From the NCBI GenBank assembly GCA_017452475.1, contig JAFTMJ010000053.1, positions 1,512 to 65,511 on the forward strand: 64,000 bases of DNA, given 5' to 3'. The position numbers were made by a program, and so were the translations under genes. The notes below the pieces were generated by a model that saw only the letters and a program-made list of their open reading frames with translations, had not been told where the DNA came from and did no database searches. Of the stretch, positions 2,899 through 64,000 are shown piece by piece (the first letter of the stretch is position 1; every line of letters begins with the position of its first letter). This stretch comes from Clostridia bacterium (GTDB taxonomy: Bacteria > Bacillota > Clostridia > Oscillospirales > CAG-272).

Positions 2899-2927
2899 CC
2901 CCAAAATTATATTATACTAATAAAAAA
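2899..2927 (+). promoter_or_regulatory. sigma-A type promoter for histidine kinase gene
   Basis: TTGACT - 17 nt - TATACT, immediately after the terminator and 16 nt before the AAAGGAGG SD of the kinase gene. Confidence 0.5.
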
Positions 2928-2942
2928 GAAAGGAGGACGCAT

Positions 2943-4451: not shown

Positions 4452-5575
4452 TAATTGAGTATGTTGCAACCTGCCTTTTCGGCTTGGAAAGTCTTCTCGG
4501 TGAGGAGATTGAAGCCTTGGGCTACAAAAGGACAGAAACGATGGACGGCAGGGTTAGCTTTACAGGAGATGAATATGCTGTTGCTAACTGCAGTATTAAT
4601 TTGCGCTTTGCGGAAAGGCTTTATATTAAGGTTGGCGAATTTAATGCGTATACCTTTGACGGGCTATTTGAGGGCGTAAAATCCCTTGAATGGGAAAAAT
4701 GGATAGGGCAGGAGGATGAATTTCCTGTTCGTGGACATAGCATAAAAAGTAAGCTTTTTTCAATTCCCGATTGCCAAAAAATAATCAAAAAGGCGGTCGT
4801 TTCCCGCCTTTCGGAAAAATACGGTGTTAGCTGGTTTAATGAAAGAGGAGTTAAATATCAAATAGACTTCTTTATCTTTAAGGACAGAGCCACCCTTATG
4901 ATTGACACCTCGGGCACACCCCTGCACAAAAGGGGTTACCGTCCCAAGGCAAACGAGGCACCGATTAGGGAAACCCTTGCCTGCGCCTTGGCAAAGCTTT
5001 CCCGCCCAAGGGAGGATGTTCTTTTTTGGGACCCCTTCTGCGGCTCGGGAACAATCGCTATTGAGGCGGCAATGCTAATGACCAATACCGCCCCGGGCTT
5101 GAACAGAGCCTTTGCGGCAGAGCTTTTCCCACAGTTTAAAAAGGAGCTTTGGATAAGGGCAAGGGAAGAGGCAAGGGCAAAAATTATAAAAGACTCACCC
5201 TTTACTGTGTACGCCTCCGACATTGACCCGGAGTGCGTCAAAATAGCCACGGAAAGCGCAAAGCACGCAGGGGTTTACAAAAATATGAAAATTTTTCAGC
5301 AGGATGCCCTAACCATTTCCACAGAAGGAAGGCGCGGCACCGTTGTTTGTAATCCTCCGTACGGTGAAAGGCTTTTGTCAATGAAGGATACAGAGGCGCT
5401 TTACAAAAAAATGGGCGAGCATTTTAAAACCCTTGACAGGTGGCAGATGTATATAATCACCAGTCACGAGGAGTTTTGCAAGCTCTTTGGCAGAAAGGCA
5501 GACAAGGTAAGGAAGCTTTATAACGGTATGATACCCTGTTATTTCTACCAATTTTTTAAAAACGACAAAAAATAG
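4448..5575 (+). CDS. THUMP-domain class I SAM-dependent RNA methyltransferase (UPF0020/YpsC-like)
   Basis: TTG start overlapping the kinase stop; DPFCGSGTIAIEAA SAM motif I and catalytic NPPYGERL motif IV. Confidence 0.85.
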   Translation: MIIEYVATCLFGLESLLGEEIEALGYKRTETMDGRVSFTGDEYAVANCSINLRFAERLYIKVGEFNAYTFDGLFEGVKSLEWEKWIGQEDEFPVRGHSIKSKLFSIPDCQKIIKKAVVSRLSEKYGVSWFNERGVKYQIDFFIFKDRATLMIDTSGTPLHKRGYRPKANEAPIRETLACALAKLSRPREDVLFWDPFCGSGTIAIEAAMLMTNTAPGLNRAFAAELFPQFKKELWIRAREEARAKIIKDSPFTVYASDIDPECVKIATESAKHAGVYKNMKIFQQDALTISTEGRRGTVVCNPPYGERLLSMKDTEALYKKMGEHFKTLDRWQMYIITSHEEFCKLFGRKADKVRKLYNGMIPCYFYQFFKNDKK

Positions 5576-5630
5576 TTTAAATAATTTACCTCCGTCAATA
5601 CTAACAAAAAGTATTTACGGAGGTATTTTA

Positions 5631-7043
5631 ATGCAGGAGTTAACGGAGGACTTTGACCGAAATATCGACACTCTTGACGGTATTTTGAATATAAAAGAGA
5701 ATTTTGACCTAATAAAAAGAGAAATGATTATAAGCGGGCAACGGGTTACAATGTACTATGTTGACGGCTTTGTTACCGCAGCCATAATGCAAAAGCTGAT
5801 GATGCACTTAACATCGGTTAAGGATTTCGGCAACGGCAAGCAGGGCGCGGTCGAAAAATTCATAAAAAGCAGTGTTCCGAGCGTGGAGGTGGATGCGGTA
5901 TATGACTTTGATACTGTTGTAACAATGGTGCTAAGCGGCTGCTCCGCCATTTTGGCAGAGGGCTTTGGCAAGGGAGCTGTAATAGTTGACGCCCGTTCTT
6001 ATCCCGCCCGAGTTACGGAGGAGCCGGGAAACGATAAGGTAATGCGGGGCGCTAGAGATGGCTTTGTTGAAACCTTAATTTTCAACACCGCCATGGTTCG
6101 CCGCAGAATAAGGGATCCCCATCTTCGGGTTAAATATGCTAATGTCGGGGAAAGGTCAAAAACCGATATAGCAGTGGTGTATATAGAAGGAAAAGCCGAC
6201 CCTGTGTACGTAAAACAGCTAATTGAAAAAATAAATTCCATAAAAACCGATGCTTTGCCAATGGGTCACCAAAGCTTGATTGAGTGCCTTATAAAAAAAC
6301 GGTGGTACAACCCGTTTCCAAAGGTTAGATGCACGGAAAGACCCGATGCTGCCTGCGCGTCTATCTTGGAGGGAAGCGTAATTGTTTTGTGCGATACCTC
6401 ACCTGAGGCAATGATTTTGCCAACAGCAATATTTGACTTTTTGCAGGAAACGGATGACTATTACTATCCTTGCTTTACAGGCACATACTTAAGGCTGATT
6501 AGGCAAATGGTGTTTTTAGGCGCAATTTTTTTAACCCCTGTTTGGTATACCCTTGTGGTAAACGCCGCCCATTTGCCGCAGTGGATTGCATTTATTGTCC
6601 CCGACGATATGGGTAAGGTTCCTATAATTGCGCAGCTTTTAATTGTGGAGTTTGTCCTTGACGGCTTGAAGCTGGCTTCACTGAACACCCCAAATGTGTT
6701 ATCTAATTCCTTTAGCGTGGTTGGTGGACTTTTGCTTGGTGATTTTGCCGTTCAAATCGGCTGGCTTTGCCCCGATGCAATATTCTATATGGCAATAGAG
6801 GCAATCGCAGGCTTTACCCAGTCCAATTACGAGCTTGGCTATGCCTTTAAATTTATGCGAATTTTGTCTATTATTTTAGTCCATTTCTTGAACTTTTGGG
6901 GGCTTATTATCGGAACGGGAGTCACAATTTTATTAATTGCCACAAATCAAACCGTCCTTGGCAGGCGAGATTATTTGTACCCCTTAATTCCCTTTAACGC
7001 AAAAGCCTTAAAATCATTGTTCTTTAGAGTCAAAAAACCGTAA
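5631..7043 (+). CDS. GerA-family spore germination protein (A subunit / SpoVAF-like), orphan
   Basis: Typical GerA core (VDGFV, RSYPARVTEEP, RGARDGFVETL, VRRRIRDP) followed by multiple C-terminal TM helices. No B or C subunit gene is adjacent. Confidence 0.85.
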   Translation: MQELTEDFDRNIDTLDGILNIKENFDLIKREMIISGQRVTMYYVDGFVTAAIMQKLMMHLTSVKDFGNGKQGAVEKFIKSSVPSVEVDAVYDFDTVVTMVLSGCSAILAEGFGKGAVIVDARSYPARVTEEPGNDKVMRGARDGFVETLIFNTAMVRRRIRDPHLRVKYANVGERSKTDIAVVYIEGKADPVYVKQLIEKINSIKTDALPMGHQSLIECLIKKRWYNPFPKVRCTERPDAACASILEGSVIVLCDTSPEAMILPTAIFDFLQETDDYYYPCFTGTYLRLIRQMVFLGAIFLTPVWYTLVVNAAHLPQWIAFIVPDDMGKVPIIAQLLIVEFVLDGLKLASLNTPNVLSNSFSVVGGLLLGDFAVQIGWLCPDAIFYMAIEAIAGFTQSNYELGYAFKFMRILSIILVHFLNFWGLIIGTGVTILLIATNQTVLGRRDYLYPLIPFNAKALKSLFFRVKKP

Positions 7044-45374: not shown

Positions 45375-46690
45375 GTGAATTAATAAATAAAAAAGTAGTA
45401 ATTATCGGCTCAGGTCCTGCGGGGCTTGTGTGCGCCCTTTCCTGCTGTCAAAACGGGATTGAGCCCTCCGATATGCTTATAATAGAGCGTGAAAGTGAAA
45501 TTGGCGGCACCCTTAACCAATGCATCCATTCGGGCTTTGGCAAGAGCTATCTTGACGAGGTTGTTACAGGAACTGAGCTTGCTTCTATGCTCTCGGACGG
45601 TATTCGCCAGCTTGAAATTGAGTATATTACAGACTCAACGGTATTGTCCGTTGACAAGCAAAAGAGGATAAGGGTTGTTTCCCCAAAATACGGCTATTGC
45701 ACCATCAAGGCGGAATCTATCGTTCTTGCTATGGGCTGCCGTGAAAAAACAAAGGGTGCGCTTCAAATCGGCGGCACCCGTCCTGCAGGCGTTTTTTCTG
45801 CAGGCGCCGTTCAAAGAATTGTTAACATTAAGGGCTATATGCCGGGCAAGCGCACTGTTGTGTTAGGCTCGGGTGACTTGGCTATGATAGTTGCGCGCCG
45901 TCTTGTTTTAGAGGGCGGGCGTGTTGTTTGCGTCTGTGAGCCGAAGCCGTATGCAGAGGGCTCCGATGAAAACATCAAGGAGTGCTTGGATGATTTTGAT
46001 ATACCTCTTTATTGCTCCCATTCCGTTACAAGAATTTTGGGTAAGGGAAGGATAGAGGCGGTTGAAATCTCCCACGTTGATAAGCGAGGCAAAATTGTTA
46101 AAGGCACCGCAAAGCGGGTTAAGTGCGACTCCTTTGTGTACCAATGCGGTCTTGTACCCGAAAACGAGATAATTAAGGACACAGGCATTAGGCTTGACAC
46201 ACGCACAAGGGGCGCGTATGTTAACCAGTACTTTGAAACAAATGTAAGGGGCATATTTACCTGCGGTAATGCTGTCAGAATACACGACCTTGTTGACTAC
46301 ATTGTTGAGGAGGCACAGGTTGTTGGCTCGGCTGTTAAGCGCTATCTTGACAACAAGACCGAAAAGCCCGAAAGGGTTATTAGAATTAAAAACGGAGAAA
46401 GAATTTTGTACTCCGTTCCTCAGCATATAGATGTTTATGATGATATTGAGGACTGCGTTATTTACTTTAGAGTAAACGGTAAGTACAAAAACCTGCTCAT
46501 AACCGTAAAAAAGGACGGGGAGGTAATCTATTCCCGTGAAAAGGGCAGTATGTCTTGGCTTGAAACAGGAAAAATTCAGTTAACTCGTGAGCTTGCCGAA
46601 AAAATCGGCGATGCTAAGGAAATTGTTATATGTGCATCGGAGAAGGAAGATGGAGCTAATATTGACAACAACGGTGAAGATAAGGAGTGA
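45371..46690 (+). CDS. NAD(P)/FAD-dependent pyridine nucleotide-disulfide-type oxidoreductase
   Basis: VVIIGSGPAGL and VVLGSGDLAM dinucleotide folds, TCGNA motif; overlaps the upstream stop by 4 nt. Confidence 0.8.
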   Translation: MSELINKKVVIIGSGPAGLVCALSCCQNGIEPSDMLIIERESEIGGTLNQCIHSGFGKSYLDEVVTGTELASMLSDGIRQLEIEYITDSTVLSVDKQKRIRVVSPKYGYCTIKAESIVLAMGCREKTKGALQIGGTRPAGVFSAGAVQRIVNIKGYMPGKRTVVLGSGDLAMIVARRLVLEGGRVVCVCEPKPYAEGSDENIKECLDDFDIPLYCSHSVTRILGKGRIEAVEISHVDKRGKIVKGTAKRVKCDSFVYQCGLVPENEIIKDTGIRLDTRTRGAYVNQYFETNVRGIFTCGNAVRIHDLVDYIVEEAQVVGSAVKRYLDNKTEKPERVIRIKNGERILYSVPQHIDVYDDIEDCVIYFRVNGKYKNLLITVKKDGEVIYSREKGSMSWLETGKIQLTRELAEKIGDAKEIVICASEKEDGANIDNNGEDKE

Positions 46691-46871
46691 AACATCCACC
46701 CTATTGCCCGTTAAAACCGATAAGCCGATAGAGCAGGAAAAGCTTAAAAAGGCAATGAAGAAAATTAATAAAATAGAGGTTTCTGCCCCTATAAATGTTG
46801 GGGATGTTATCCGCCGCAACTTTACCGAAAAGGGCATAAATCTCATTTCAACCAAAACGGTTGAAAGATAA
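46650..46871 (+). CDS. DUF1667-like protein, C-terminal half only (73 aa)
   Basis: TTVKIRSETSTLLPVKTDKPIEQEKLKKAMKKINKIEVSAPINVGDVI resembles the C-terminal half of DUF1667 proteins found after GlpA-like pairs. The ATG follows GGAGAAGGAAG. The Cys-rich N-terminal half is absent. Confidence 0.55.
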   Translation: MELILTTTVKIRSETSTLLPVKTDKPIEQEKLKKAMKKINKIEVSAPINVGDVIRRNFTEKGINLISTKTVER

Positions 46872-46938
46872 TTTTAAAAAATTTTAAAAAAGGTATTGCA
46901 AACTTGAAAAAACTGTGATAAAATAGTCGAGTAAATAC

Positions 46939-47025
46939 GCCGGTGTGATGGAATTGGCAGACGTGCTGGACTCAAAATCCAGTGGTAGCGATACCGTATC
47001 GGTTCGACCCCGATCACCGGCACCA
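46939..47025 (+). tRNA. tRNA-Leu (anticodon CAA), class II with long variable arm, encoded CCA
   Basis: Acceptor GCCGGTG/CACCGGC, anticodon stem CTGGA/TCCAG with loop CTCAAAA, variable arm TGGTAGCGATACCGT, T-arm ATCGG-TTCGACC-CCGAT, 3' ACCA. Confidence 0.95.
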
Positions 47026-47027
47026 CG

Positions 47028-47065
47028 AAAAGCCACACTTGTCTTTAGATAGTGTGGCTTTTTTC
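47028..47065 (+). terminator. intrinsic terminator after tRNA-Leu
   Basis: AGCCACACT-11 nt loop-AGTGTGGCT followed by TTTTTT. Confidence 0.75.
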
Positions 47066-47217
47066 AAATTAAGTGTCCCACTTCTCGAAACTTGAAGCTT
47101 GCGTCACAAGAGAGGCGCACCGCGTAAGTGAAGTGTACCTGCGGTAGCAGAGAGAGACCCAGTTGAACTGGGATATACAGCAGAAGAATAAATCAAGCTC
47201 CATACATAATGCAGCAT

Positions 47218-47252
47218 AAAAAATCAGCGGAAAATTTTCGCTGATTTTTTTG
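47218..47252 (+). terminator. second intrinsic terminator closing an ORF-free 150-nt segment
   Basis: AAAAAATCAGCG-GAAAATTTT-CGCTGATTTTTTT. Confidence 0.65.
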
Positions 47253-47336
47253 TTTCAAAGATTAAGTTTGTATTTACTTTTCGCTATATTTATGTTAGAA
47301 TTAATTTGATATATTATAACGAAACGGAAGCTAATA

Positions 47337-49703
47337 ATGACAGAACAAGAAAAGCAAAGATACATAAGGGCAAAGCGCGCCCTTTTTGACAAATATTATT
47401 CTTTTTTAAACGAGCCGCAAAGGGAGGCTGTGTATACAGTCAACGGTCCTGTTTTAATTTTGGCGGGAGCAGGCAGCGGCAAAACAACCGTGCTTGTAAA
47501 CAGAATTGCCCATATCATTAAATACGGCGATGCTTATTACAGCGACTATGTTCCCGAGTTTATAAACGGGGACGCAATTGAGGATATGGAAAATGCCGCA
47601 AAAAGCAGTGATAAGGAGCTTATCGAAAACTATTTGCGTGTCCTTTCCTTAGAGCCCTGTAAGGCATACAACATCTTAGCTATCACCTTTACAAACAAGG
47701 CGGCAAACGAAATAAAGTCAAGGCTTGAAAGCAAGCTTCGGGAAAGCGCGGCAGACATTTGGGCAGGCACCTTTCACTCCGTGTGTATGAAAATCCTTCG
47801 CTCCCACGGTGAAAAGGTTGGCTACCGTCCCGGCTTTAGCGTTTGCGACACGGATGATGCCAAAAAGGTCATCTCCAAGTGTATGAAGGACTTGAATATT
47901 GACGAAAAGTATTTGGCAATCAAAACCGTAATGAACGAAATCGGCAGGGCAAAGGATAAACTGCTAACCCCCGAGGAATATTCCCTTGAGGTTGGGGGAG
48001 ATGCAAAGTATAAGGATGTTGCCCGTGTTTATGAGCTTTATCAAAAGCGACTGATGGATTCAAATGTGCTTGACTTTGATGATATTATTATGAAAACCGT
48101 TCAGCTCTTTGAAAAGGATGAAAATGTGCTTTCATATTATCAAAAGAAATTCAAGTACATTTGCGTCGATGAGTATCAGGATACAAACAAGGCGCAGTTT
48201 ATTTTGGTTAAGTACTTGGGCGACCTTTACAGAAATGTAATGGTTGTCGGCGATGATGACCAGAGTATTTATAAGTTCCGCGGCGCAACAATAGAGAACA
48301 TTTTAAACTTTGATAAAACCTATTATGATGCCAAGGTTGTTAAGCTGGAGCAAAACTACCGTTCCACCTCAAATATTTTGAATGCCGCAAACAGCGTTAT
48401 CAAAAATAATCAGCATAAGCATATGAAAACACTGTGGTGCGATAACGAGGCGGGAGACAAGATAATAGTTAAGGAAACTCAAACACAAAACGATGAATCA
48501 AGGTACATAATTGACAAAATAGTCAGCCTTAAAAATGAAAAAAGCTTGGAGTACCGTGATTTTGCAATTCTTTATCGTATGAATGCACAGTCAATGAACC
48601 TGGAAACAATGTTTGCCAAAAGCGGTATTCCGTACCGTATGCTCGGCGCTCTTAGGTTCTATGACCGTAAGGAGGTAAAGGATATAATTGCATATTTGTC
48701 CGTTATCAATAACCCCAGCGACAGTATAAGGCTTCGCCGTATAATCAATGAGCCAAAGCGAAAGATTGGAGATGCGTCCTTTGATGCCGCATCCCAAATG
48801 GCGGAGGCGCTTGGTGTTCCTACCTTAGAGGTAATAAGGCACGCAACGGATTATAACGCAATTCCAAAGATTGCCGCAAACAGTATGGTTGCCTTTGCTA
48901 AAATAATAGATGAGCTGATGGATGAGCAGGAGGGCATGGCTCTTTCCGCCTTTGTCCGTCAGGTTATTAAGCGCACAGGCTATGAGTCAGCCCTTGTTGC
49001 CCTCGGTCAAAGTGAGGCGGAAAGGCTTGAAAACTTGGACTCCCTTTGCGAGGCGGTAAGGGAATATGAAAATGAGGCAGAGGAGCCAACCCTGTCGGGC
49101 TTCTTGGAGGAGGTTGCCCTCGTTTCCGATGTGGACCGCTACGATGAAAATGCCGATGCGGTAACGCTAATGACCATCCATAGCTCCAAGGGACTTGAAT
49201 TTCCTGTTGTTTTCCTGCCCGGAATGGAGGAAAATGTTTTTCCCGGCAGTCAGTCTATGGCTATGCCCTCGGAAATAGAGGAGGAGAGGCGTCTTGCCTA
49301 TGTTGCTATTACAAGGGCAAAGAAAAAGCTTATAATAACTCACGCTCGTGAGAGGATGCTTTACGGTATGACACAGCATAACCTGCTGTCCCGTTTTGTC
49401 CGTGAGATTGACCCTATGTACCTTGATGTGCAAAAGGACAGCACCTTTTCAAATATGCGCAGCAGCTTTAATAAGCCAAGTGCATCTCAGTACAATTTTA
49501 ACAATTACGCAAGGACAGAGAAGAAGGCGCCGGTTGTTGCCTTCAGTATAGGCGACAGGATAAAGCATATGACCTTTGGAGAGGGAACGATTTTAAACGT
49601 TATCCCTATGAGCACAGATTTTATGTATGAAATTGCATTTGATAATGTGGGCACTAAAAAGCTTATGGCGTCCTATGTTTCAAAGCTAATGAAAAAGATT
49701 TAA
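47337..49703 (+). CDS. pcrA: ATP-dependent DNA helicase PcrA (UvrD family)
   Basis: LNEPQREAV, GAGSGKTT, TFTNKAANE, VDEYQDTN, QNYRST, TIHSSKGLEFPVVF, YVAITRAKKKL. Confidence 0.95.
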   Translation: MTEQEKQRYIRAKRALFDKYYSFLNEPQREAVYTVNGPVLILAGAGSGKTTVLVNRIAHIIKYGDAYYSDYVPEFINGDAIEDMENAAKSSDKELIENYLRVLSLEPCKAYNILAITFTNKAANEIKSRLESKLRESAADIWAGTFHSVCMKILRSHGEKVGYRPGFSVCDTDDAKKVISKCMKDLNIDEKYLAIKTVMNEIGRAKDKLLTPEEYSLEVGGDAKYKDVARVYELYQKRLMDSNVLDFDDIIMKTVQLFEKDENVLSYYQKKFKYICVDEYQDTNKAQFILVKYLGDLYRNVMVVGDDDQSIYKFRGATIENILNFDKTYYDAKVVKLEQNYRSTSNILNAANSVIKNNQHKHMKTLWCDNEAGDKIIVKETQTQNDESRYIIDKIVSLKNEKSLEYRDFAILYRMNAQSMNLETMFAKSGIPYRMLGALRFYDRKEVKDIIAYLSVINNPSDSIRLRRIINEPKRKIGDASFDAASQMAEALGVPTLEVIRHATDYNAIPKIAANSMVAFAKIIDELMDEQEGMALSAFVRQVIKRTGYESALVALGQSEAERLENLDSLCEAVREYENEAEEPTLSGFLEEVALVSDVDRYDENADAVTLMTIHSSKGLEFPVVFLPGMEENVFPGSQSMAMPSEIEEERRLAYVAITRAKKKLIITHARERMLYGMTQHNLLSRFVREIDPMYLDVQKDSTFSNMRSSFNKPSASQYNFNNYARTEKKAPVVAFSIGDRIKHMTFGEGTILNVIPMSTDFMYEIAFDNVGTKKLMASYVSKLMKKI

Positions 49704-49716
49704 GGAGATAATAAAA

Positions 49717-51441
49717 ATGAACATTCCAAGACCTGAGCATCCCAACCCCCAATTTGAAAGAGAAAACTGGGTAAACCTAAATGGCGAATGGGAGTTTGAG
49801 CTTGACCGCGGCATAAGCGGCAGAGACAGAAAATTCTATGAAAGAGATAGCCTTGACTCGAAAATCATCGTTCCCTTCTGCCCTGAAAGCGTGCTTTCAG
49901 GCATAGGCAATACAGACTTTTTAAACTGCGTGTGGTATCTTAAAAGAATTAAGCTTAAGAAGTGCAACAAGAGGGTAATTTTGCACTTTGGCGCCGTTGA
50001 TTACGAAAGCTACATCTACATAAACAAAAAGCAGGTATACCACAACATCGGCGGTTACGTTGGCTTTGATATTGATATTACAGATTATGTTAAGATGGGT
50101 GAGGAAAACATTATTACCGTTTGCGCAATTGACACCCATCCAAGCGGAAAAGCATCCGGCAAGCAGTCGAAAAACTATTATTCAATGGGCTGTGACTACA
50201 CCCGTACAACAGGTATTTGGCAAACCGTATGGCTTGAATATGTGGAGCAAAGCTATATAAAGAGTGTAAAATACTATACCTCGGCTGAGGACAGCAGTGT
50301 TCAAATAGAGGTAGAAACCGTTGGAAACGGCGAATTTAAGGCGATTGCCACCTATAAGGGCAAGAATGTGGGCGAAAAGGCAGTTAAGCTAAAGGAGGGT
50401 ATTTCCCGCCTTACAGTAAGCCTTAGCGAGCTTCATTTGTGGGAGGCAGGCAAGGGCAGGCTTTATGACCTTGAGCTAACCTACGGTAAGGATAAGGTTA
50501 AAAGCTATTTTGGTATTCGTTCAACCGCTTTTGATAAGAAGAGCTACTTGCTAAACGGCAAGCCCCTTTATCTCCGTACAGTTCTTGACCAGGGCTTCTA
50601 CAAGAAGGGCATTTACACAGCGGAAACAGACGAGGAATTGATACAGGATATCTATTTGTCCTATGACGCAGGCTTTAACGGTGCGCGCCTCCACCAAAAG
50701 GTGTTCGAGCCAAGATTTTTATACCACTGCGATAAGCTGGGCTATCTTGTGTTTGGCGAAACAGGAAACTGGGGCTTGGACTGCTCAAATATGGAACAGC
50801 TGACTCCCTTTATGCTTGAATGGCAAAGAGAAATTGCAAGGGACTTTAACCACCCGTCAATAATTGGCTGGTGCCCGCTGAACGAAACATGGGATTATGA
50901 TTTCAGACATCAAAATGATGATTTTGTAAGGGCTATGTACTATGCAACAAAGACAATGGATACAACCCGTCCCTGCGTGGGCACAAGCGGCAACTATCAG
51001 GTTGTTTCCGATATATATGACCTACACGATTATATTCAGGGCAAGGAGGACTTTGAAAAAATATATTTAGCGCCAACTCAAGAGGAAATGCTGAATAATT
51101 ATGATAACCACCCATATCACGAATGGATAAGAAGATATCAAAAGTCAATAGACTTTAAGGATATGGCACTGTATATCAGTGAATACGGCGGTATCAGATG
51201 GGACACAGACGGTGTTGGCGGCTGGGGCTATGGCGACGGCCCTAAAACAGAGGAGGAGTTCCTTGACAGATACGAATATCTTACAAAGGCGCTAATTAAC
51301 AGCCCATATCTTTGCGGCTTCTGCTATACTCAGCTTTATGATGTGGAGCAAGAGGTTAATGGCTTGTACACATATGAAAGAAAACCAAAATTTGATATGA
51401 GGAGAATTAAAGCCATTACCCAGGCTAAAAAGGAAAAATAA
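49717..51441 (+). CDS. glycoside hydrolase family 2 protein
   Basis: GH2 sugar-binding N-terminus (LNGEWEF, GAVDYESYIYINK), Ig-like middle, TIM barrel with FNGARLHQ and acid/base WCPLNETW. Confidence 0.8.
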   Translation: MNIPRPEHPNPQFERENWVNLNGEWEFELDRGISGRDRKFYERDSLDSKIIVPFCPESVLSGIGNTDFLNCVWYLKRIKLKKCNKRVILHFGAVDYESYIYINKKQVYHNIGGYVGFDIDITDYVKMGEENIITVCAIDTHPSGKASGKQSKNYYSMGCDYTRTTGIWQTVWLEYVEQSYIKSVKYYTSAEDSSVQIEVETVGNGEFKAIATYKGKNVGEKAVKLKEGISRLTVSLSELHLWEAGKGRLYDLELTYGKDKVKSYFGIRSTAFDKKSYLLNGKPLYLRTVLDQGFYKKGIYTAETDEELIQDIYLSYDAGFNGARLHQKVFEPRFLYHCDKLGYLVFGETGNWGLDCSNMEQLTPFMLEWQREIARDFNHPSIIGWCPLNETWDYDFRHQNDDFVRAMYYATKTMDTTRPCVGTSGNYQVVSDIYDLHDYIQGKEDFEKIYLAPTQEEMLNNYDNHPYHEWIRRYQKSIDFKDMALYISEYGGIRWDTDGVGGWGYGDGPKTEEEFLDRYEYLTKALINSPYLCGFCYTQLYDVEQEVNGLYTYERKPKFDMRRIKAITQAKKEK

Positions 51442-52763
51442 TGAGTACTGTTAAAATTGATTATTCAAAAGAGATAGGCAATGTTAAGGTAATGCACGCA
51501 GTTAACAATGGCCCTGTTATTGCCGGCAAGGACCAAACAAGAGGGAACGAGCATTCATATAGAGCTGCAAGAATCCCATATGCAAGAGTGCATGACGCTG
51601 CCTTTTTCGCAGGCTACGGTGGAGAGCATACTATTGATGTTCACGCAATATTTCCAAATTTCGACGCAGATGTAAACGATCCAAATAGCTATGATTTTGC
51701 ATGCACCGACCACTATATTTCTCAAATTATTAGTGTCGGCACACAACCGTTTTATCGCTTAGGCTCTAAAATAGAGCACGGTGTAAAGAAATATGGAACA
51801 ATAATGCCACCCGATTTTCAGAAATGGGCAGAGGTGTGCGAGCATATAATCAGACACTATAATGAGGGCTGGGCAGACGGCTTTAGCTATAATATAAAGT
51901 ATTGGGAAATCTGGAACGAGCCGGATTTAGACCCGGATGATGCGGTAAATAAAAGATGCTGGAGTGGTAGCTGGGCTGAGTATATAAGATTTTATACAAT
52001 AGCCTCAAAGCACCTAAAATCTTGCTTCCCACATCTAAAAATTGGCGGACCTGCCTCTTGTGGTGATGAAAAATTTATGGAGTTGTTTTTACAGGAAATA
52101 AGCAAGGAAGAAAATGTGCCCCTTGACTTTTTATCTTGGCATTGGTATTGGACCGAGCCAAGCGATGTTTCTATCAAAGCTACTCGCATAAGAAAATTGC
52201 TTAAATTATACGGTTATGGAAATGCCGAAAGCATTTTAAACGAGTGGAACTACGTTCGCTCCTGGTCAAAGGAATTTGTATATTCAATAAAGCAAATAAT
52301 CGGTATGAAGGGTGCAGCTTTTACCTCTGCCGTTATGTGTGCAATGCAAAACAATCCGGATGTTGATATGCTTATGTATTACGATGCTCGTCCTACCGGA
52401 TTTAATGGACTTTGGGATATGTACACCTACGAGGAGCTCAAGGGCTACTACGCATTTTATACATTTGCTAACCTTTATGACCTTGGTACACAGGTAGAAA
52501 ATATCTCGGACGATGAGAATATTTATGTAGTAGCCGCTAAAAATGGAGAAGGTGTTGGTGCGGTTGTAACCTACTATACTGAAAACGATAACGAAAATAG
52601 TAAATATGTCACCATTGATGTAAATGGCTACGATATGTCAAAGGCAAAAATCTACCTCACCGATGAAAAAAGTCAATATTGCCCATACATAAAGGCTGCC
52701 TTCAAGGACGGCAAGCTGGAAATCAGACTTGAGCGTAACAGTATAATCTATATCGAAGCATAG
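51441..52763 (+). CDS. clan GH-A glycoside hydrolase (GH39-like)
   Basis: WEIWNEPD acid/base motif and a NEWN-type nucleophile region typical of GH39/GH5-like barrels. The family assignment is tentative. Confidence 0.6.
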   Translation: MSTVKIDYSKEIGNVKVMHAVNNGPVIAGKDQTRGNEHSYRAARIPYARVHDAAFFAGYGGEHTIDVHAIFPNFDADVNDPNSYDFACTDHYISQIISVGTQPFYRLGSKIEHGVKKYGTIMPPDFQKWAEVCEHIIRHYNEGWADGFSYNIKYWEIWNEPDLDPDDAVNKRCWSGSWAEYIRFYTIASKHLKSCFPHLKIGGPASCGDEKFMELFLQEISKEENVPLDFLSWHWYWTEPSDVSIKATRIRKLLKLYGYGNAESILNEWNYVRSWSKEFVYSIKQIIGMKGAAFTSAVMCAMQNNPDVDMLMYYDARPTGFNGLWDMYTYEELKGYYAFYTFANLYDLGTQVENISDDENIYVVAAKNGEGVGAVVTYYTENDNENSKYVTIDVNGYDMSKAKIYLTDEKSQYCPYIKAAFKDGKLEIRLERNSIIYIEA

Positions 52764-52776
52764 AAAGAGGCGCAAA

Positions 52777-53343
52777 ATGACAGAGCTTGAAAAAATAGAG
52801 TATGCCAAATCCTTTATTGATAAGCTGGCAAACGGAATAAATCCGTTGGATGACAGCCCCGTTCCCGAGCGTGATATTGTAAATAATGTAAGACTTTCAC
52901 GTTGCTTTTTCTATGTTTCCGATATTTTGCGTCAGGTTGTTGAAAATGGCGGAATAACAATGGAAAGAGTGGCAAAGCCAAAGAAAAAACCGTTTTCGCT
53001 GTCCCAAGAGGAGCGCGAAAGCATTAAAATCTCCGACACTCCCTTGACAATCAGCGAAATAACAAAATATTTGAATTCTCTGATAGACGAGGAAAAGACC
53101 AAAAAGATTACAACAAACGCAATAAGCAATTGGCTGGTAGAAATGGGCTTTTTGTGCGTGATAACCTACGACAACAACAAGCATAGAAAATCACCAACAG
53201 AGCAAGGCATAAAAATCGGCATTTTAACCGAAGAAAAAATGGGTCAATATGGCAAATACATAGCAGTGCTTTATTCCCGATCAGCCCAGCAATTTATCTA
53301 TGACAACTTAGATGCAATCACATCTCAAAAGGAAACTCAATAA
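52777..53343 (+). CDS. hypothetical protein (188 aa)
   Basis: ORF with a GAAAGAGG SD, 13 nt after the GH gene; no motif recognised with confidence. Confidence 0.5.
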   Translation: MTELEKIEYAKSFIDKLANGINPLDDSPVPERDIVNNVRLSRCFFYVSDILRQVVENGGITMERVAKPKKKPFSLSQEERESIKISDTPLTISEITKYLNSLIDEEKTKKITTNAISNWLVEMGFLCVITYDNNKHRKSPTEQGIKIGILTEEKMGQYGKYIAVLYSRSAQQFIYDNLDAITSQKETQ

Positions 53344-53344
53344 C

Positions 53345-53381
53345 AAAAAGGCATTTCCGCAAAACGGAAATGCCTTTTTTG
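53345..53381. terminator. bidirectional intrinsic terminator (left copy)
   Basis: AAAAAGGCATTTCCG-CAAAA-CGGAAATGCCTTTTTT. Confidence 0.8.
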
Positions 53382-53422
53382 TTGAATCAAATCAACAAAT
53401 TCAAATACCTACCGTACCTAAA

Positions 53423-53473
53423 TTAGTTGTTCTGATTCTTGATGGAATTTTCGTAAGATTCTACCATCTTCTT
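53423..53473 (-). pseudogene. orphan 3' fragment of alpha/beta-type SASP gene (last 16 codons + stop)
   Basis: Encodes KKMVESYENSIKNQNN*, identical to the C-terminus of the intact SASP at 58860-59066; no upstream SASP coding sequence. Confidence 0.85.
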
Positions 53474-53600
53474 GTCTTTATTATCATAGCAAAAGCCAGT
53501 AAAAACAATCAAATAAATTCAAGAGGTTTTAAAGTGAGTAAAAAGATTTTTGTTGTACCTTTATTGTAGCTTGAGTACATTAAATATTCAAGTTGAAAAG

Positions 53601-53662
53601 GGTGCAAAATTGGGTGAATTAGAGGTAATTTAAGGTGCAAAATAGTGCATAATGGTGCAAAA
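53601..53662 (+). repeat. three direct GGTGCAAAA motifs (iteron/operator-like)
   Basis: GGTGCAAAA at 53601, 53634 and 53654, with related GTGCATAA at 53645, inside the island about 130 bp from the left repeat. Confidence 0.6.
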
Positions 53663-53665
53663 GGT

Positions 53666-53950
53666 TTAAAGTATCTTGTACCAAAGCATGTATGTGATTT
53701 CAATTTCTTTTCTTTCAATACTACCTTTAACAACAAAGTCAACTTCCTTGCACTCTGTAAAGCTACTTTTATACTCACCTTGCTTATAAAGTATTGGATA
53801 GCAGTAGGGAATACAGTATTCTATTATCCTTTCCCATTTAGAGTTGGGATAGAGAATTAAGTCTTCACCAGAGTCAGATATAAATCCAATACCTGACTTT
53901 TTATAGCTGAAGTCATTTTCTTTTCTAAGACAGTAAGCCACTTTAATCAT
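53666..53950 (-). CDS. hypothetical protein (94 aa), island-encoded, divergent from the DUF488 operon
   Basis: ORF with a strong SD (GAAAGGAG, 8 nt before ATG); no recognisable motif. Confidence 0.55.
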   Translation of the reverse strand: MIKVAYCLRKENDFSYKKSGIGFISDSGEDLILYPNSKWERIIEYCIPYCYPILYKQGEYKSSFTECKEVDFVVKGSIERKEIEITYMLWYKIL

Positions 53951-54190
53951 CTTTATTTACTCCTTTCTTTTTAAATTTTTTATTTCGCCCGCAAAACAAA
54001 AAAGGCACAGTTATCGTTCAAAATAACTGTGTTTTTAAATATGGTAACAGATGTCAACAGCCTCTATAACCTCAAATTTAAGCAAAAGAAAATTTCTGCG
54101 TTAAAATCCTCAACTTATAGTTTTCAGCCGAAATTTCTCCTGTTTACATCTGCGATAACTGTGCCACAACACCAAAGGCGAAATAAGATA

Positions 54191-54219
54191 TTGAAAACAA
54201 TTACAATTGATGTTATACT
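54191..54219 (+). promoter_or_regulatory. sigma-A type promoter of the DUF488 operon
   Basis: TTGAAA - 17 nt - TGTTATACT (extended -10), 35 nt upstream of the first ATG. Confidence 0.55.
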
Positions 54220-54254
54220 AGTAATAGTAAGTTTTGTAAAGAGTGGGTTAATAA

Positions 54255-54869
54255 ATGGAAAATTCAATTTACACAATAGGATATACAGGCTATAGCTTAG
54301 ATGAATTTATTCAAGAATTGAAAAATAAGGGAATAAATGTTGTAATCGATGTTAGAAGTTCACCGTATTCAGAACGTTATCCTGATTACAATAGAGATAA
54401 TTTGGAATCAACATTGGCTTCAAACAGAATATATTACAGGAACTATGTAAAAGAATTTGGAGCTAGACAGGATAACAGAAATTTTTATTCTAGGGATGGA
54501 TATTTTGATTTTGAAGTTTTCGCAAAATCAGAGCAATTTTTGTCTGGTGTAGAAAAGATTAAAAATAGTGTGGCAAAGGGATATAGGGTTCTTTTCCTCT
54601 GCGCAGAAAAAGAGCCTATACAATGTCACCGAACAATATTAGTATCAAGAGCTTTTCACAAACTTGGATATAACGTCATCCACCTTAAGCCTAATAACAT
54701 AGCTATAAATCACGGTGAAATTGAAACACAACTGTTGAACATGTATTTTCCAAATAGATATCAAAGGGATATGTTTTCAAATGATGATAAAACAGATGAT
54801 GATTATTTGATAGATGCTTACAGAATGCAGAATAGAAAAATAGGATATAAGATAGAAGGGGAAGAGTAA
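54255..54869 (+). CDS. DUF488 family protein (204 aa)
   Basis: IYTIGYTGYSLDEFIQELKNKGINVVIDVRSSPYS and LFLCAEKEPIQCHRTIL match the DUF488 (YeaO-like) pattern. Confidence 0.8.
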   Translation: MENSIYTIGYTGYSLDEFIQELKNKGINVVIDVRSSPYSERYPDYNRDNLESTLASNRIYYRNYVKEFGARQDNRNFYSRDGYFDFEVFAKSEQFLSGVEKIKNSVAKGYRVLFLCAEKEPIQCHRTILVSRAFHKLGYNVIHLKPNNIAINHGEIETQLLNMYFPNRYQRDMFSNDDKTDDDYLIDAYRMQNRKIGYKIEGEE

Positions 54870-55303
54870 TGATTATTTGTACAATGGGGTTTGCTCAAAA
54901 AAATGCCAAAACATTTTTCGAATTGCTAAAAGAAAACAAAGTGGAAGCTTTAATTGATGTTAGATTAAATAATAAATCCCAATTAGCTGGTTTTACAAAG
55001 GGAAATGACCTTGAATATTTTTTACCTATACTTTGTGATTGTGAATATTATCATGAAATTGATTTTGCTCCTACAAAAGAAATACTGGATTCTTATAAAG
55101 ACAAAAAGACAACGTGGATAGAATATGAAAATGCATTTATTCCATTAATAGAAGAAAGAGGAATAAAAGCACTTTTTGATGAAAAATACAGAAAATATAA
55201 CTGTGTTTGCTTGCTGTGCAGTGAGCCAACACCGGAACAGTGCCATCGAAGATTGGTTTCAGAATATGTAGCGAAAAAGAACGACATAATCAAACACATT
55301 TAG
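54869..55303 (+). CDS. DUF488 family protein (144 aa), divergent paralog
   Basis: ICTMGFAQKNAKTFFELLKENKVEALIDVRLNNKS and CLLCSEPTPEQCHRRLV. The ATG shares its A with the upstream TAA. Confidence 0.8.
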   Translation: MIICTMGFAQKNAKTFFELLKENKVEALIDVRLNNKSQLAGFTKGNDLEYFLPILCDCEYYHEIDFAPTKEILDSYKDKKTTWIEYENAFIPLIEERGIKALFDEKYRKYNCVCLLCSEPTPEQCHRRLVSEYVAKKNDIIKHI

Positions 55304-55312: not shown

Positions 55313-57397
55313 ATGTACAAGGAAATAGTTATCTTAACCAAGTCAAAAAAGAACAATAAATATTGCGTTGCTGGTATAGAATTGAATGCAAGAAAATGGA
55401 TAAGACTTGTTACTTTTGATAAACTAAGCGACGGAGCATTAGATGATTTGGATCTTGAACTTGCAACAGGTGGTTGCGCTGAATCCCTTGATGTAGTTAG
55501 AGTATCAATTATAAAAGAAGTACCTGTTGGTTGTCAAACGGAGAACAATCTAATTGAAAGAAGAAAGAAATTATATAAGATCGGAAAAATGTCATTAAGA
55601 GAACTTTTTGACTTAGTTAATCCAATTGATAGTCCGTATATTTTTTTAAACGCCAACAGGTATTTGGATAATTTAGATGGGTTGGACTACTCCTTGGTTT
55701 TGGCAAAAGTTACGAATATGAGAGTATACTACAATGATAATGGTAAGAGAAAAGCGGATTTCCAGTATAATATCGAAACGTATGCTCAAATTAGTGTTAC
55801 AGATCCAATTTATCTTGATTTGTTTGAAGAAACAGGGACGAAAAACGAACTTTTCATTGATAAAGCTTACGTAGTTGTTAGTATACCACACAAGCCACAT
55901 AATGCAACAGGATTCTACTATAAGTTTTTAGCAAAAATTTTTCCCGTAGATGCTTTCTTTGATGAGGATGAGAAATTCGATTTTACTAAACCACATTCAA
56001 TTGACGAGATAATTGACACATTTGAATTTCCAATTCCGGTGAAAAAGAGCTTTTGGACAAGTGATTTTTACCATATAATCGAAGATGTTACCGAACGAGG
56101 AACAACAGGTGTGGATTATAAGGGCGTTTCACCGTACGGAAGAGGGAGAACGTTTAGCTTGGAAGATAGTGATCTGTATGTGTGTGATGACAAAGTTAGT
56201 TTAGTATATAAACATAAGAAAAATGAAACTGTTAATAATGACAATATAGATTTTGATTTTGAGAAAACATATACAATCAATGAAATAGTAGAACGTTTTG
56301 AATTTCCAATACCCATAAAAAGAGATATTTGGTTTAATGATTTTTACTACAACATTGAAAGCATATATAGTGATTTTACAAAAGGAACATCGTATTTATG
56401 TGGAGAGTGGGAAAGCGCTAGAAGAACCTTCAGCATAAACGATAGTGGTTTTTATGTTTGCAAGGATAAGGGACGACTAAGGATAAAAAGTACTTTCCAA
56501 AAGAATATTAAAACCAAAGAAACTGTTGAGCAAAAAAATACTGAAACGATTGAAAACAATTTGGTTTTAGATTATAAAAAAAGCTATTCATTAGAGTTTC
56601 TTTTAAAACACTTGTCTCCTCCTTTTGCGGTTAAAAAAGGAGATTGGTCACGTTCTCGTTATTTCGTAGTTAAAGGGAAATTGGGCTCTAATGCGATTGG
56701 TGATGTATATTTTAATACTCGAAAAATTCAACATGATATGTTCAACTTGCAATTGAAATTCTATTTGTGTGCTGATACGGTAATTAAAAACTCTGATGGT
56801 TTAGTTGAAGAAAAGAAAAACGTAACGGAGACGTTGGTTAAAAATAAACCAAACAAAAAAAGAGAGTTTTCTCAAAGCATGATTGAAAAAACGGGCACAG
56901 CATCAAAACCGGAAAATATGCAAAAGGAAGAGCAAACCAAATATAGCGAAATAGAGCTTTTGCAGAAAGAATTGAGCTTAAAACCTGGAGAATCTATCGT
57001 TTACGTATTAAGTGATACTGGTTGGCAAGAGGCTTTGTTTTTGGGTTTACAAAAGGTTTCTGGTGAGTATATAGCAAAAGTAAAAAAATCAGATTTTGAA
57101 ACTTCATATAGTTATCCTAGTGAGGTCGTTACTATTAATGATCGAGGACTTAAAAAAAGTGAAAGAGAAATTGAAGAAGAAAAATTAAGAAAAAAGCAAT
57201 TAAAAGAATTGAACGCGAGAATTAGAACTCAAAACGAAAATAGAATAAAAGAAGAAGCAGAAAGAACTATAAAATTTGAAGAGGAACTGAAACAGGGAAA
57301 AAGTTCATATGGCAGTGGAACTGATATTAATCATGTGTTAAGGTGTGATGGTATTTGTTCTAATTGCAAAAGGTGCGAAGATTGTCTAAAGGGATAA
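55313..57397 (+). CDS. 694-aa multi-domain protein of unknown function (N-terminal domain, 3 tandem ~80-aa repeats, coiled coil, C-terminal Cys cluster)
   Basis: AGGAG SD; starts 9 nt after the DUF488-2 stop. Internal repeats at aa 222-300, 313-392 and 418-493. KE-rich heptad-like segment at aa 614-662. C-terminal CDGICSNCKRCEDC. Confidence 0.8.
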   Translation: MYKEIVILTKSKKNNKYCVAGIELNARKWIRLVTFDKLSDGALDDLDLELATGGCAESLDVVRVSIIKEVPVGCQTENNLIERRKKLYKIGKMSLRELFDLVNPIDSPYIFLNANRYLDNLDGLDYSLVLAKVTNMRVYYNDNGKRKADFQYNIETYAQISVTDPIYLDLFEETGTKNELFIDKAYVVVSIPHKPHNATGFYYKFLAKIFPVDAFFDEDEKFDFTKPHSIDEIIDTFEFPIPVKKSFWTSDFYHIIEDVTERGTTGVDYKGVSPYGRGRTFSLEDSDLYVCDDKVSLVYKHKKNETVNNDNIDFDFEKTYTINEIVERFEFPIPIKRDIWFNDFYYNIESIYSDFTKGTSYLCGEWESARRTFSINDSGFYVCKDKGRLRIKSTFQKNIKTKETVEQKNTETIENNLVLDYKKSYSLEFLLKHLSPPFAVKKGDWSRSRYFVVKGKLGSNAIGDVYFNTRKIQHDMFNLQLKFYLCADTVIKNSDGLVEEKKNVTETLVKNKPNKKREFSQSMIEKTGTASKPENMQKEEQTKYSEIELLQKELSLKPGESIVYVLSDTGWQEALFLGLQKVSGEYIAKVKKSDFETSYSYPSEVVTINDRGLKKSEREIEEEKLRKKQLKELNARIRTQNENRIKEEAERTIKFEEELKQGKSSYGSGTDINHVLRCDGICSNCKRCEDCLKG

Positions 57398-57496: not shown

Positions 57497-57525
57497 ATAG
57501 GGCTATTAATTTAGCCCTTTTTCTT
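57497..57525 (+). terminator. intrinsic terminator after the three-gene operon
   Basis: AGGGCTA-TTAATT-TAGCCCT followed by TTTTCTTT. Confidence 0.6.
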
Positions 57526-57652: not shown

Positions 57653-57700
57653 AAACTATAATGATGGTACACTAAATTGGCTAAAAAGGAGGGAGTATTG

Positions 57701-58750
57701 ATGACTAACAGAAATTATGAAATTTTAAGTGAAAATACCGTTGTTGCAATTTGGCAAAATAACAAGCTAAATGTACTCAACGAAGCTTTGTTACCGTTAT
57801 ATCTACGCAAGATTCAAAATGCAAATATGTGGCTCGAAACACGTGCAATAGATAGTCATAGAGCAAACTCTCGCCTTTTGAAAAAAGCCCTTAGATTAAC
57901 TGACAAGGACGATATTTCAACCGTAATACATGTTAACGGAGCCACTATTACAGATAACTATTGGATTCGAGAAATCGGATCAGAGTTGACTTATGACGAT
58001 GTTAAATTTGAGGACGATTATTTTTCCAATCTTGCTCTTAAAGGAAACTATGATAGCTTTAATCGTGCTGCAAACAGTAAGCGTTCAAAAACTCCAGAGC
58101 TTACCAATGTAGGAAGCTTTGAAAAGTGTTGGAAGTTGCGCGACGGAAAGTGGTGGATGTACAAAAAGGCAAACCACGAAGAGATGTTTTCTGAATTGTT
58201 TATTTATGAGCTTGGAAGAGAGCTTGGATTTGATATGGCAATTTATGAGCGTGGAGAAGGGTATATTAAATCTCTTGATTTTACAGATTCAGCATCGGTA
58301 AACTTTGAACCTGCTTCAACATTTATGGGAGATAACGAGGAGTATATTGATGTTATAAAAGCACTTGAAAAACTTTGCCCTCAAGCAATCTCCGATTATG
58401 TTAAATTGATATTCTTAGATACTATTTGTGCAAACCCGGACAGACATACAAATAACTTTGGACTTTTGCGTGACGTACAAACAGGAGAACTCCTCGGACT
58501 TGCACCAAACTATGATAACAATATGGCGCTGATTTCCCGTGGATACCCATCAAAAACAGGCAACAAAGATGTTCTTATAACAATGTTTAATGAACTCTTG
58601 GAAGAATATCCAACCTTCCGTTCTTTCGTTCCAAAAGTAACAGAAGATACAGTTAGAAAAGTTATTAACAAACTTAATATGAAGGTCAAATCACAACTTA
58701 TTGTTGAGTTAGTAACAAAACGCTACGAAATGATTGTCAAGAAATTTTAA
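57701..58750 (+). CDS. HipA-like serine/threonine kinase (349 aa), no cognate HipB/HipS gene
   Basis: Start MTNRNYEIL follows AAAAAGGAGGGA. Catalytic-loop-like ICANPDRHTNNFGLL and APNYDNN match the HipA_C D-x-H-x-x-N and YD motifs. Confidence 0.75.
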   Translation: MTNRNYEILSENTVVAIWQNNKLNVLNEALLPLYLRKIQNANMWLETRAIDSHRANSRLLKKALRLTDKDDISTVIHVNGATITDNYWIREIGSELTYDDVKFEDDYFSNLALKGNYDSFNRAANSKRSKTPELTNVGSFEKCWKLRDGKWWMYKKANHEEMFSELFIYELGRELGFDMAIYERGEGYIKSLDFTDSASVNFEPASTFMGDNEEYIDVIKALEKLCPQAISDYVKLIFLDTICANPDRHTNNFGLLRDVQTGELLGLAPNYDNNMALISRGYPSKTGNKDVLITMFNELLEEYPTFRSFVPKVTEDTVRKVINKLNMKVKSQLIVELVTKRYEMIVKKF

Positions 58751-58778: not shown

Positions 58779-58910
58779 AACGAAAAAGCATTTCCGCAAA
58801 ACGGAAATGCTTTTTCTGTTGAATCAAATCAACAAATTCAAATACCTACCGTACCTAAATTAGTTGTTCTGATTCTTGATGGAATTTTCGTAAGATTCTA
58901 CCATCTTCTT
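58779..58910. repeat. right direct repeat (attR-like), includes terminator and functional SASP 3' end
   Basis: Near-identical to 53342-53473; hairpin AAAAAGCATTTCCG-CAAAA-CGGAAATGCTTTTT. Confidence 0.9.
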
Positions 58911-59066
58911 AACCATCTGACCGCCGATAGAGCCTGCCTGCTTAGAGGTCAAGTTACCGTTGTAGCCGTTCTGGTTAAGAGTAACACCTACTTCGCTAGC
59001 AGCCTGCATCTTGAACTGGTCAAGAGCAGCCTTAGCTTCAGGAACTGAGATGTTGTTCTTAGACAT
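58860..59066 (-). CDS. alpha/beta-type small acid-soluble spore protein
   Basis: 68 aa. KMQAASEVGV...LTSKQAGSIGGQMVKKMVE matches the SASP alpha/beta signatures (K-x-E-x-A-x-E-x-G and G-x-V-G-G). AGGAG SD. Confidence 0.9.
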   Translation of the reverse strand: MSKNNISVPEAKAALDQFKMQAASEVGVTLNQNGYNGNLTSKQAGSIGGQMVKKMVESYENSIKNQNN

Positions 59067-63760: not shown

Positions 63761-64000
63761 TCTGACAACCAAAGCGTACATTTTCGTGCTCTCGTGTTCT
63801 ACTGTTTCCATGTAGTCCACTTCTCGAAGTGGTCAAACATGTGGTCAGAAAACAAGCCTTGCGTATCCGTTTATTGTGATACACAGGGCTTTGTTTTTCG
63901 TTTACCGTACCCCAAAATTTGGGGAGCAATAAACAAAGAAAAAGCGGTTAATAAATATCAAAATATTCTCGCAAGAATTTGTCGTATTGCCATTCCGGGC

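Follow-up and report, generated by a model that had tools for sequence, protein, structure and literature searches.

A triplicated, portable domain in the DuOB protein of a DUF488-DUF488-DuOB operon from a Clostridia bacterium

The window analysed here, a 64,000-nucleotide stretch of contig JAFTMJ010000053.1 from a Clostridia bacterium, contains an open reading frame (ORF) for a 694-residue protein. A preliminary description, made from the letters of the DNA, had divided this protein into a compact N-terminal domain, three internal repeats and a series of smaller C-terminal modules. The locus raises the question of what a protein so composed might do, and with which partners. The ORF proved to be as described, and the database entry for its product is that of a hypothetical protein from a Clostridia bacterium metagenome-assembled genome (MAG). 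We lean slightly towards the answer that the protein is a non-catalytic subunit of a three-gene DUF488-DUF488-DuOB cassette of the kind catalogued as PDC-M45, that its tail serves for recognition or as an adaptor, and that the cassette likely acts in defence.

The operon and its conservation

The genes for two DUF488 proteins and the 694-residue protein are adjacent and co-oriented (Table 1). The two DUF488 genes overlap at TAATG, with the start of the 144-residue gene on the stop of the 204-residue gene, and the AGGAG ribosome-binding site of the 694-residue gene overlaps the stop codon of the DUF488 gene before it. Because the genes overlap or adjoin, have ribosome-binding sites, and lie between a promoter-like and a terminator-like site, we regard them as one tightly coupled operon. 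Each of its products matches one of the PADLOC profiles for PDC-M45 (A, B and C), which bears out the link to the two DUF488 genes that the preliminary description had drawn.

Table 1. Coordinates of the operon, its signals and the modules of the 694-residue protein in the window
Feature	Position	Strand	Evidence
Promoter-like site TTGAAA, 17 nt, TATACT, with TG, 5' of the first DUF488 gene	54191..54219	+	Consensus scan 10/12; pattern match only
First DUF488 gene, 204 residues (PDC-M45B)	54255..54869	+	Pfam DUF488 4.7e-21; PADLOC PDC-M45B 8.9e-49
Second DUF488 gene, 144 residues (PDC-M45C, DUF488-N3a subclade)	54869..55303	+	Pfam DUF488 5.9e-19; PADLOC PDC-M45C 3.2e-53
694-residue protein gene (PDC-M45A with C-terminal extension)	55313..57397	+	ORF list, Pfam, PADLOC
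DuOB (dual OB) domain, residues 3-209	55319..55939	+	Pfam PF22557 E=1.9e-39; PADLOC PDC-M45A 3.5e-26
Repeat 1, residues 218-304	55964..56224	+	Hidden Markov model (HMM) envelope; BLASTP vs repeat 2 E=6e-23
Repeat 2, residues 310-396 (copy modelled)	56240..56500	+	HMM envelope; AlphaFold2 model
Repeat 3, residues 415-496, diverged copy	56555..56800	+	Family-profile HMM domain E=3.8e-29; BLASTP ~1e-5 vs repeats 1 and 2
Lys/Glu-rich linker, residues 497-555	56801..56977	+	39% charged residues; no family match
Tudor/SH3-like beta-barrel, residues 556-609	56978..57139	+	Model block, predicted local distance difference test (pLDDT) 87-95; Foldseek
Single long charged helix, residues 610-666	57140..57310	+	DSSP on model: helix, model residues 65-121
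Cys5 cluster CX3CX2CX2CX2C, residues 678-691	57344..57385	+	Direct sequence reading; model pLDDT ~50
Terminator-like hairpin and T run, ~100 nt past the stop of the 694-residue gene	57499..57518	+	Pattern match only

Both DUF488 proteins keep the C-x-E...CHR signature, as CAEKEPIQCHR from residue 116 in the 204-residue protein and, with the motif likewise intact, as CSEPTPEQCHR from residue 117 in the 144-residue protein. The 204-residue protein matched the generic DUF488 profile with 76 bits, and the 144-residue protein matched the Pfam DUF488-N3a profile with 31.6 bits against a cut-off of 27. No model of an inactive DUF488 subclade was matched.

A DuOB-like N-terminus, of a type said to be reported in NTP-dependent conflict systems, had been suggested in the preliminary description. 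The DuOB assignment is correct, although none of the literature searched used the term DuOB in the sense of such systems. By sequence, the first 215 residues of the 694-residue protein are a DuOB domain, PF22557 being matched with 136.3 bits (gathering cut-off 27) and residues 3-209 covering profile positions 1-210 of 210. Sequence searches found no solved structural relative of this part. Other DuOB proteins are either bare (209-229 residues) or have quite different C-terminal extensions, among them DUF1351 together with a conserved C-terminal helix-turn-helix (HTH)-like motif, a winged-helix-like segment, and a membrane helix. A constant head with a variable tail is therefore the rule for the DuOB family.

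The second major tail type was seen in proteins of ~600 residues with DUF1351, whose DuOB ORFs run from 5001 to ~6850 in loci L012, L014, L016 and L019 and from 5001 to 6518 in L013. The DUF1351-type proteins end in WTEEEE..EF..G.S..EIA..H.RK.GGI.ARLKKLGLI, which looks like an HTH.

Among 5.8 billion clustered proteins, the close relatives of the 694-residue protein were itself and two others only, one with two repeats and one with a single repeat. Both of these are encoded in DUF488-DUF488-DuOB cassettes (loci L001 and L002) with unrelated neighbours. A scan of one genome per species yielded 14 further DuOB loci, one in an Alphaproteobacterium and nearly all in herbivore-gut Clostridia, and in most of them both DUF488 paralogues adjoin the DuOB gene. 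Plasmids also carry these genes: DuOB, DUF488 and DUF4326 occur on the Citrobacter plasmid pLNU-11, and DuOB with two DUF488 genes lies between csx16/cas1 and csm6, in a type III CRISPR locus, on the Allochromatium plasmid pAt1. The cassette is conserved as a unit across many genomes and plasmids in which its surroundings differ, with 16 recurrences in other loci besides those on plasmids.

Conservation within the cassette is uneven. Compared with the orthologues in L001 and L002, the second DUF488 protein (PDC-M45C) is 82-85% identical, the first (PDC-M45B) 68-70%, the DuOB domain 49-56%, the repeats 34-42% and the barrel that follows them 27%. The three cassettes also have three, two or one repeats. 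No part of the system evolves faster, or varies more in copy number, than the C-terminal add-on.

The repeat domain and the rest of the tail

The C-terminal 480 residues are a lineage-specific add-on of four module types. The three tandem repeats claimed for it are real: all three copies were recovered, with HMM envelopes slightly wider than the bounds first proposed, and the nucleotide spans first given convert correctly from the residue numbers. A self-BLAST of the whole protein returned the identity match only, and the repeats were therefore compared as segments. Repeats 1 and 2 are 45.6% identical across 79 residues, and the diverged repeat 3 matched repeat 1 with E=6e-5 and repeat 2 with E=3e-5 (BLASTP). 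Local alignments of the three pairs stood at z = 29, 6.5 and 8.2 against 500 shuffles, none of which reached the observed score. The repeats are not similar to the N- or C-terminal parts of the protein. No nucleotide-level repeat remains across the triplicated region, and the duplications are therefore old.

The AlphaFold2 model of repeat 2, built from a 39-sequence alignment, has one helix and five strands (pLDDT 93.2, predicted template-modelling score 0.82). The conserved positions of the domain are mostly aromatic, with one Pro, one Lys/Arg, one Trp and one invariant Gly. No Pfam family was common to more than one of the 39 repeat-domain members, even at E<=10, and no family of NCBIfam, PHROGs or PADLOC matched the ~85-residue repeat. 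The best match among the PDB sequences (E=0.007) covered only 30 residues of FnCas9 and was taken as chance. Foldseek with the repeat model gave nothing at E<=0.001; its best matches had E-values of 0.045 (PDB) and 0.11 (BFVD) and were followed by weak KOW, Tudor and SH3 matches. Judged by Pfam, NCBIfam, PHROGs, PADLOC, PDB and BFVD, the repeat unit seems to represent a domain family that has not been described.

Two identifications were considered and dropped. That the repeat is a diverged copy of the neighbouring Tudor-like barrel was ruled out by an hhalign probability of 0.2%. The sole support for a nucleotide sponge like Tad2/DUF2829 was a match at rank 49 in BFVD (E=1.1), and Pfam gave nothing.

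A word-indexed homologue search found three relatives with the full protein and two with the repeat profile, and an exhaustive profile search was used in its place. Only 38 of 1.84 billion representative proteins contained the repeat domain. It follows DuOB in one to three copies, stands at the N-terminus of six superfamily 1 (SF1) helicases for which HelD is the best-matching family, and is also present on two SNF2 ATPases, three dynamin-like GTPases and one DUF6273 protein, as well as in many small stand-alone proteins of 70-145 residues. PADLOC gave only generic helicase or GTPase matches for these other repeat-domain proteins. The domain is portable among proteins of gut Clostridia.

Most of the repeat-bearing helicases have the repeat followed by a barrel that can be aligned with that of the 694-residue protein. 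A profile built from the helicase barrels matched the barrels of P0003 (E=2e-4) and P0007 (E=7e-4), and matched the 694-residue protein weakly and in part (E=0.014). The HelD-like helicases had their best NCBIfam match in HelD_BACSU, with E-values of 1e-21 to 3e-39 but scores far short of the family cut-off, and also matched PDB entry 6wvk_H (1e-12). Since P0018 and P0025 match the HelD profile only from about residue 215 onwards, the repeat and barrel are an add-on to a complete HelD-like protein, and these helicases look like an undescribed HelD variant. The N-terminal add-on of repeat and barrel is ~210 residues long in P0006, P0013, P0018, P0020, P0025 and P0031 (loci L003, L008 and L009).

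Locus L002 contains a second repeat-domain gene. At 2637-5994 an 885-residue UvrD-like helicase is followed by a 235-residue coiled-coil protein (5287-5994) with a C-terminal repeat domain (E=4e-11), three genes away from the one-repeat DuOB gene. A functional link between this helicase module and the adjoining DuOB cassette is possible. In locus L007 (1706-9524), the gene for a repeat-domain SNF2 protein has another SNF2 gene and a DUF4391 gene as neighbours, in a context that looks like restriction or defence.

After the charged linker, the preliminary description had placed a small globular segment. In the model, residues ~562-607 of this segment form a confidently predicted beta-barrel that resembles the Tudor, chromo and SH3-like small barrels at the level of fold. 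Foldseek matched it to the 53BP1 Tudor domain (E ~0.01, probability 1.00), and it superposed on the MRG2 chromodomain with a target-normalised template-modelling score of 0.72 and a root mean square deviation of 2.2 A over 58 columns. No named sequence family such as CarD_TRCF or PcrA_UvrD_tudor was matched in Pfam at E<=0.05-0.1, and a profile search of PDB sequences with the barrel returned nothing significant. The barrel does align with the corresponding segments of P0003, P0005, P0007 and the HelD-like helicases.

The coiled coil proposed for residues 614-662 was sustained as a long charged helix and not as a canonical coiled coil. The helix has 57 residues, 54% of which are K, E, R or D, and only 6 of the 17 a/d positions in its best heptad register are hydrophobic. 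The terminal cluster of five cysteines is likewise present as first read (C678, C682, C685, C688 and C691), and it is not conserved in the closest homologues. It is absent from P0003 and P0005, while P0002, P0004 and P0007 have a different cluster, CX2CX7-8CX6C; conserved cysteine ligands, as in a zinc ribbon or Fe-S site, were thus not found among the closest homologues.

As the preliminary description had it, the 694-residue protein has no recognisable enzymatic motif: Pfam, NCBIfam, PADLOC and PHROGs gave no enzymatic family. Its internal similarity is significant, and it matched no well-characterised family, such as a phage structural protein. A tblastn search of 50,697 phage records with the full protein and with two stand-alone domain proteins gave no match, and pattern scans of IMG/VR and of JGI metagenomes returned nothing. 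A phage structural role or any phage origin was rejected on these searches.

Possible functions of the cassette and its tail

In the mechanism that we propose, the dual-OB module would hold nucleic acid, either a single strand or an end, and present it to the pair of DUF488 enzymes. The DUF488 pair, which belongs to the rhodanese-phosphatase superfamily and has the Cys/His/Arg signature, would be the catalytic part and might process a terminal phosphate or sugar-phosphate. By binding a second partner, the C-terminal array would determine the place or the time at which the enzymatic core acts, and the charged helix could be a spacer or an oligomerisation element. This partner could be a protein of the invader or of the host, the transcription machinery being one possibility, or else a further copy of the repeat domain itself. 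The suggestion in the preliminary description that the protein is a sensor or scaffold and not an effector fits everything that was found, and we infer the same. The role of the system would most likely be defence against phages or other mobile elements. Its candidacy for defence comes from the derivation of the PDC systems, whose definition goes back to genes lying inside BREX, DISARM or type I restriction-modification (RM) loci, PDC-M45 itself being put forward by its authors as a predicted phage-defence candidate only (Payne et al., bioRxiv 10.1101/2024.01.29.577857).

Several observations weigh against this proposal. Pfam and PADLOC identified no classical defence gene adjoining the cassette in the window, only a HipA-like kinase gene. 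No second repeat-domain gene was found in the 64-kb window or in L001, and a homotypic partner is therefore not encoded locally. The net charge of the repeat domain is near neutral (median +1, range -6 to +7) and therefore gives no clear hint of nucleic-acid binding, and the dual-OB fold assigned to the N-terminus is taken from the name of its Pfam family. DUF488 proteins are widespread outside conflict contexts, E. coli YeaO being an example. The literature searched contained no experiments on PDC-M45, DuOB or the DUF488 subclade, and no paper in it named PDC-M45 in the main text.

The repeat domain could instead be a homotypic adaptor that senses no invader directly, and either wires the DuOB protein to a helicase or GTPase partner or self-assembles through its three copies. 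Its presence at the termini of HelD-like, SNF2 and dynamin-like NTPases, on DuOB, and in many stand-alone proteins of 70-100 residues would suit such an adaptor, as would the L002 neighbourhood, in which the DuOB protein and the 235-residue protein past the UvrD-like helicase both bear the domain. The lack of a second domain-bearing gene in the window and in L001 argues the other way, as does the failure of any Pfam effector-associated-domain family to match the repeat, and we consider this explanation unlikely. We consider it decidedly improbable that the C-terminal module, by way of its Tudor-like barrel and long helix, docks the system on RNA polymerase or transcription complexes, with the core acting on nucleic acid exposed in transcription. 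PcrA/UvrD, Mfd and CarD bind RNA polymerase through their Tudor domains, and the N-terminal arm of HelD, an RNA-polymerase recycling motor, also docks on it. The repeat and Tudor-like barrel form an N-terminal add-on of HelD-like proteins, the barrel matches Tudor and chromo folds, and a PcrA_UvrD_tudor domain (Pfam) is present on the PcrA homologue of a syntenic relative of the window, L026. Nevertheless, the barrel has no sequence match to CarD_TRCF or PcrA_UvrD_tudor and its Foldseek E-value is only ~0.01. Moreover, the scores of the HelD-like proteins are far under the family cut-offs, and the repeat domain is shared with dynamin-like GTPases and SNF2 proteins, neither of which has a known link to RNA polymerase.

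The cassette might also be non-immune, namely an end-healing or nucleotide-metabolite module for the upkeep of mobile elements, with the tail as a structural scaffold that recognises nothing specific. It does occur on plasmids, some DuOB proteins have DUF1351, which is typical of phage genomes, or HTH-like tails, and defence by PDC-M45 is a prediction only. Set against this are the origin of the PADLOC models in genes embedded in defence systems, the position of the pAt1 cassette inside a type III CRISPR locus, and the nuclease-helicase pair that occupies the site of the cassette in L026. Also, neither the DuOB part nor the repeat domain turned up in the 50,697 phage genomes or in the IMG/VR pattern scans, and the fast, copy-number-variable evolution of the tail would be odd for a passive scaffold. 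We consider a non-immune module an improbable explanation, and a defence cassette with a recognition or adaptor tail remains the reading that we prefer.

A broader idea, which we offer tentatively and with some doubt, is that the repeat represents a new domain of prokaryotic conflict systems, portable and used for recognition or as an adaptor, that plugs DuOB-DUF488, HelD-like, SNF2 and dynamin-like cores into a common input in gut Clostridia. If so, this input might be a protein encoded by phages, or the transcription machinery, perhaps as modified by a phage, and the three diverged copies in the 694-residue protein would broaden or sharpen recognition. A shared input module would link otherwise unrelated candidate defence proteins of gut Clostridia; if the input is not shared, the repeat is just another embellishment, specific to one lineage, of a hypothetical system. 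What was known already is the predicted PDC-M45 or DuOB-DUF488 kind of system, and what is new here is the C-terminal 480 residues, including a family of small domains, modelled with confidence, for which current libraries have no description. The separable, fast-evolving tail is a practical handle on what the predicted system recognises, as it lends itself to deletion, to exchange or to use as bait. Nothing in these results overturns expectations for defence-island proteins.

The chromosomal site and comparison with known systems

The GC content at the cassette is 0.32, compared with ~0.43 elsewhere in the window. The related genome L026 is syntenic with the window at 80-82% DNA identity (window 45479-53319, L026 3-10543), including 6.1 kb at 82% identity that contains the PcrA, GH2, GH39 and 188-residue genes, and this similarity ends at window position 53319. 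Past the breakpoint, genes for an HTH protein, an Mrr-like nuclease, a DEAD/DUF3427 helicase and a NUDIX protein replace the cassette in L026. Because nuclease-helicase cargo occupies the same site there, we conclude that the site holds variable, defence-looking cargo.

A 61-nt stretch with repeated GTGGTC is present just past the breakpoint in L026 (10765-10825) and ~10.4 kb further on in the window (63792-63852). It may mark the distal border of a variable region, or the point where a mobile element ends; no credible match to it was found in Rfam. Rfam and tRNA scans of the low-GC island found nothing. Between the 188-residue gene and the operon is a low-GC gap of ~900 bp (53344-54254), with ORFs that have no family match and with no Rfam match.

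Directly 3' of the cassette is a gene for a HipA_C-like kinase (57677-58750, + strand; Pfam 8e-8, PADLOC PDC-M03A 1.8e-11), for which no partner gene was identified. As neither L001 nor L002 keeps it beside the cassette, it is probably an independent gene of the same low-GC island, either toxin-like or a candidate for defence. On the other side, residues 90-183 of the 188-residue protein (52777-53343, + strand) matched residues 307-395 in the tail of the DuOB protein L013:5001-6518 with E=2e-7, a likeness that is probably due to a shared DNA-binding-like domain. The 188-residue gene was rejected as a component of the system: its family is very common in Clostridia (2,729 matches), it lies in the conserved flank, and it is absent upstream of the L001 cassette.

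Two further features lie at a distance from the operon. Beside the tRNA-Leu gene (46939-47025), L026 has an extra ~2.7 kb that is absent from the window (L026 1673-4430 compared with window 47146-47217) and that encodes a 23S_rRNA_IVP-family gene and a leucine-rich repeat protein. A gene for an alpha/beta-type small acid-soluble spore protein is present at 58860-59066 on the - strand (Pfam 1.8e-28). The host is therefore an endospore-forming Firmicute, in agreement with the annotation of the MAG as Clostridia.

Of the systems known, PDC-M45 is like the operon in that its A, B and C profiles match three adjacent proteins encoded on one strand. It differs in that the PDC-M45A profiles (188-318 positions) reach residues 2-210 only, and the other 480 residues of the protein in the window lie outside them. 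A three-gene DuOB/DUF488-N3 system, in the rhodanese-phosphatase superfamily's RapZ-C-DUF488-DUF4326 clade, was reportedly described by Burroughs and Aravind in 2023 and is said to pair an active with an inactive DUF488. DuOB and a pair of DUF488 paralogues are likewise present in the operon of the window, and one paralogue scores above the DUF488-N3a cut-off. Where that system reportedly has an inactive DUF488, both paralogues of the window keep the C-x-E...CHR signature, and the repeat-bearing tail is additional.

The repeat domain can be compared with the effector-associated and Death-like adaptor domains of prokaryotic conflict systems, reportedly treated by Kaur and coworkers in 2020. As is reported for those domains, a small domain is found at the termini of NTPases, on their partners, and alone. 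The repeat domain differs in having no Pfam match and in being mainly beta with one helix and not an all-helical bundle. With the Tudor, chromo and SH3-like barrels of 53BP1 and MRG, and of bacterial PcrA/UvrD, Mfd and CarD, residues ~556-609 share the predicted fold and not the sequence family. The HelD-like SF1 helicases of gut Clostridia share the ~80-residue domain itself (E-values of 1e-19 to 1e-5 in the exhaustive search), and in most of them it is followed, as in the 694-residue protein, by a small barrel and a helical region. The placement of the module is different in the two: on the helicases it is N-terminal, in single copy, and attached to an ATPase motor, whereas on the 694-residue protein it is C-terminal, triplicated, and attached to DuOB.

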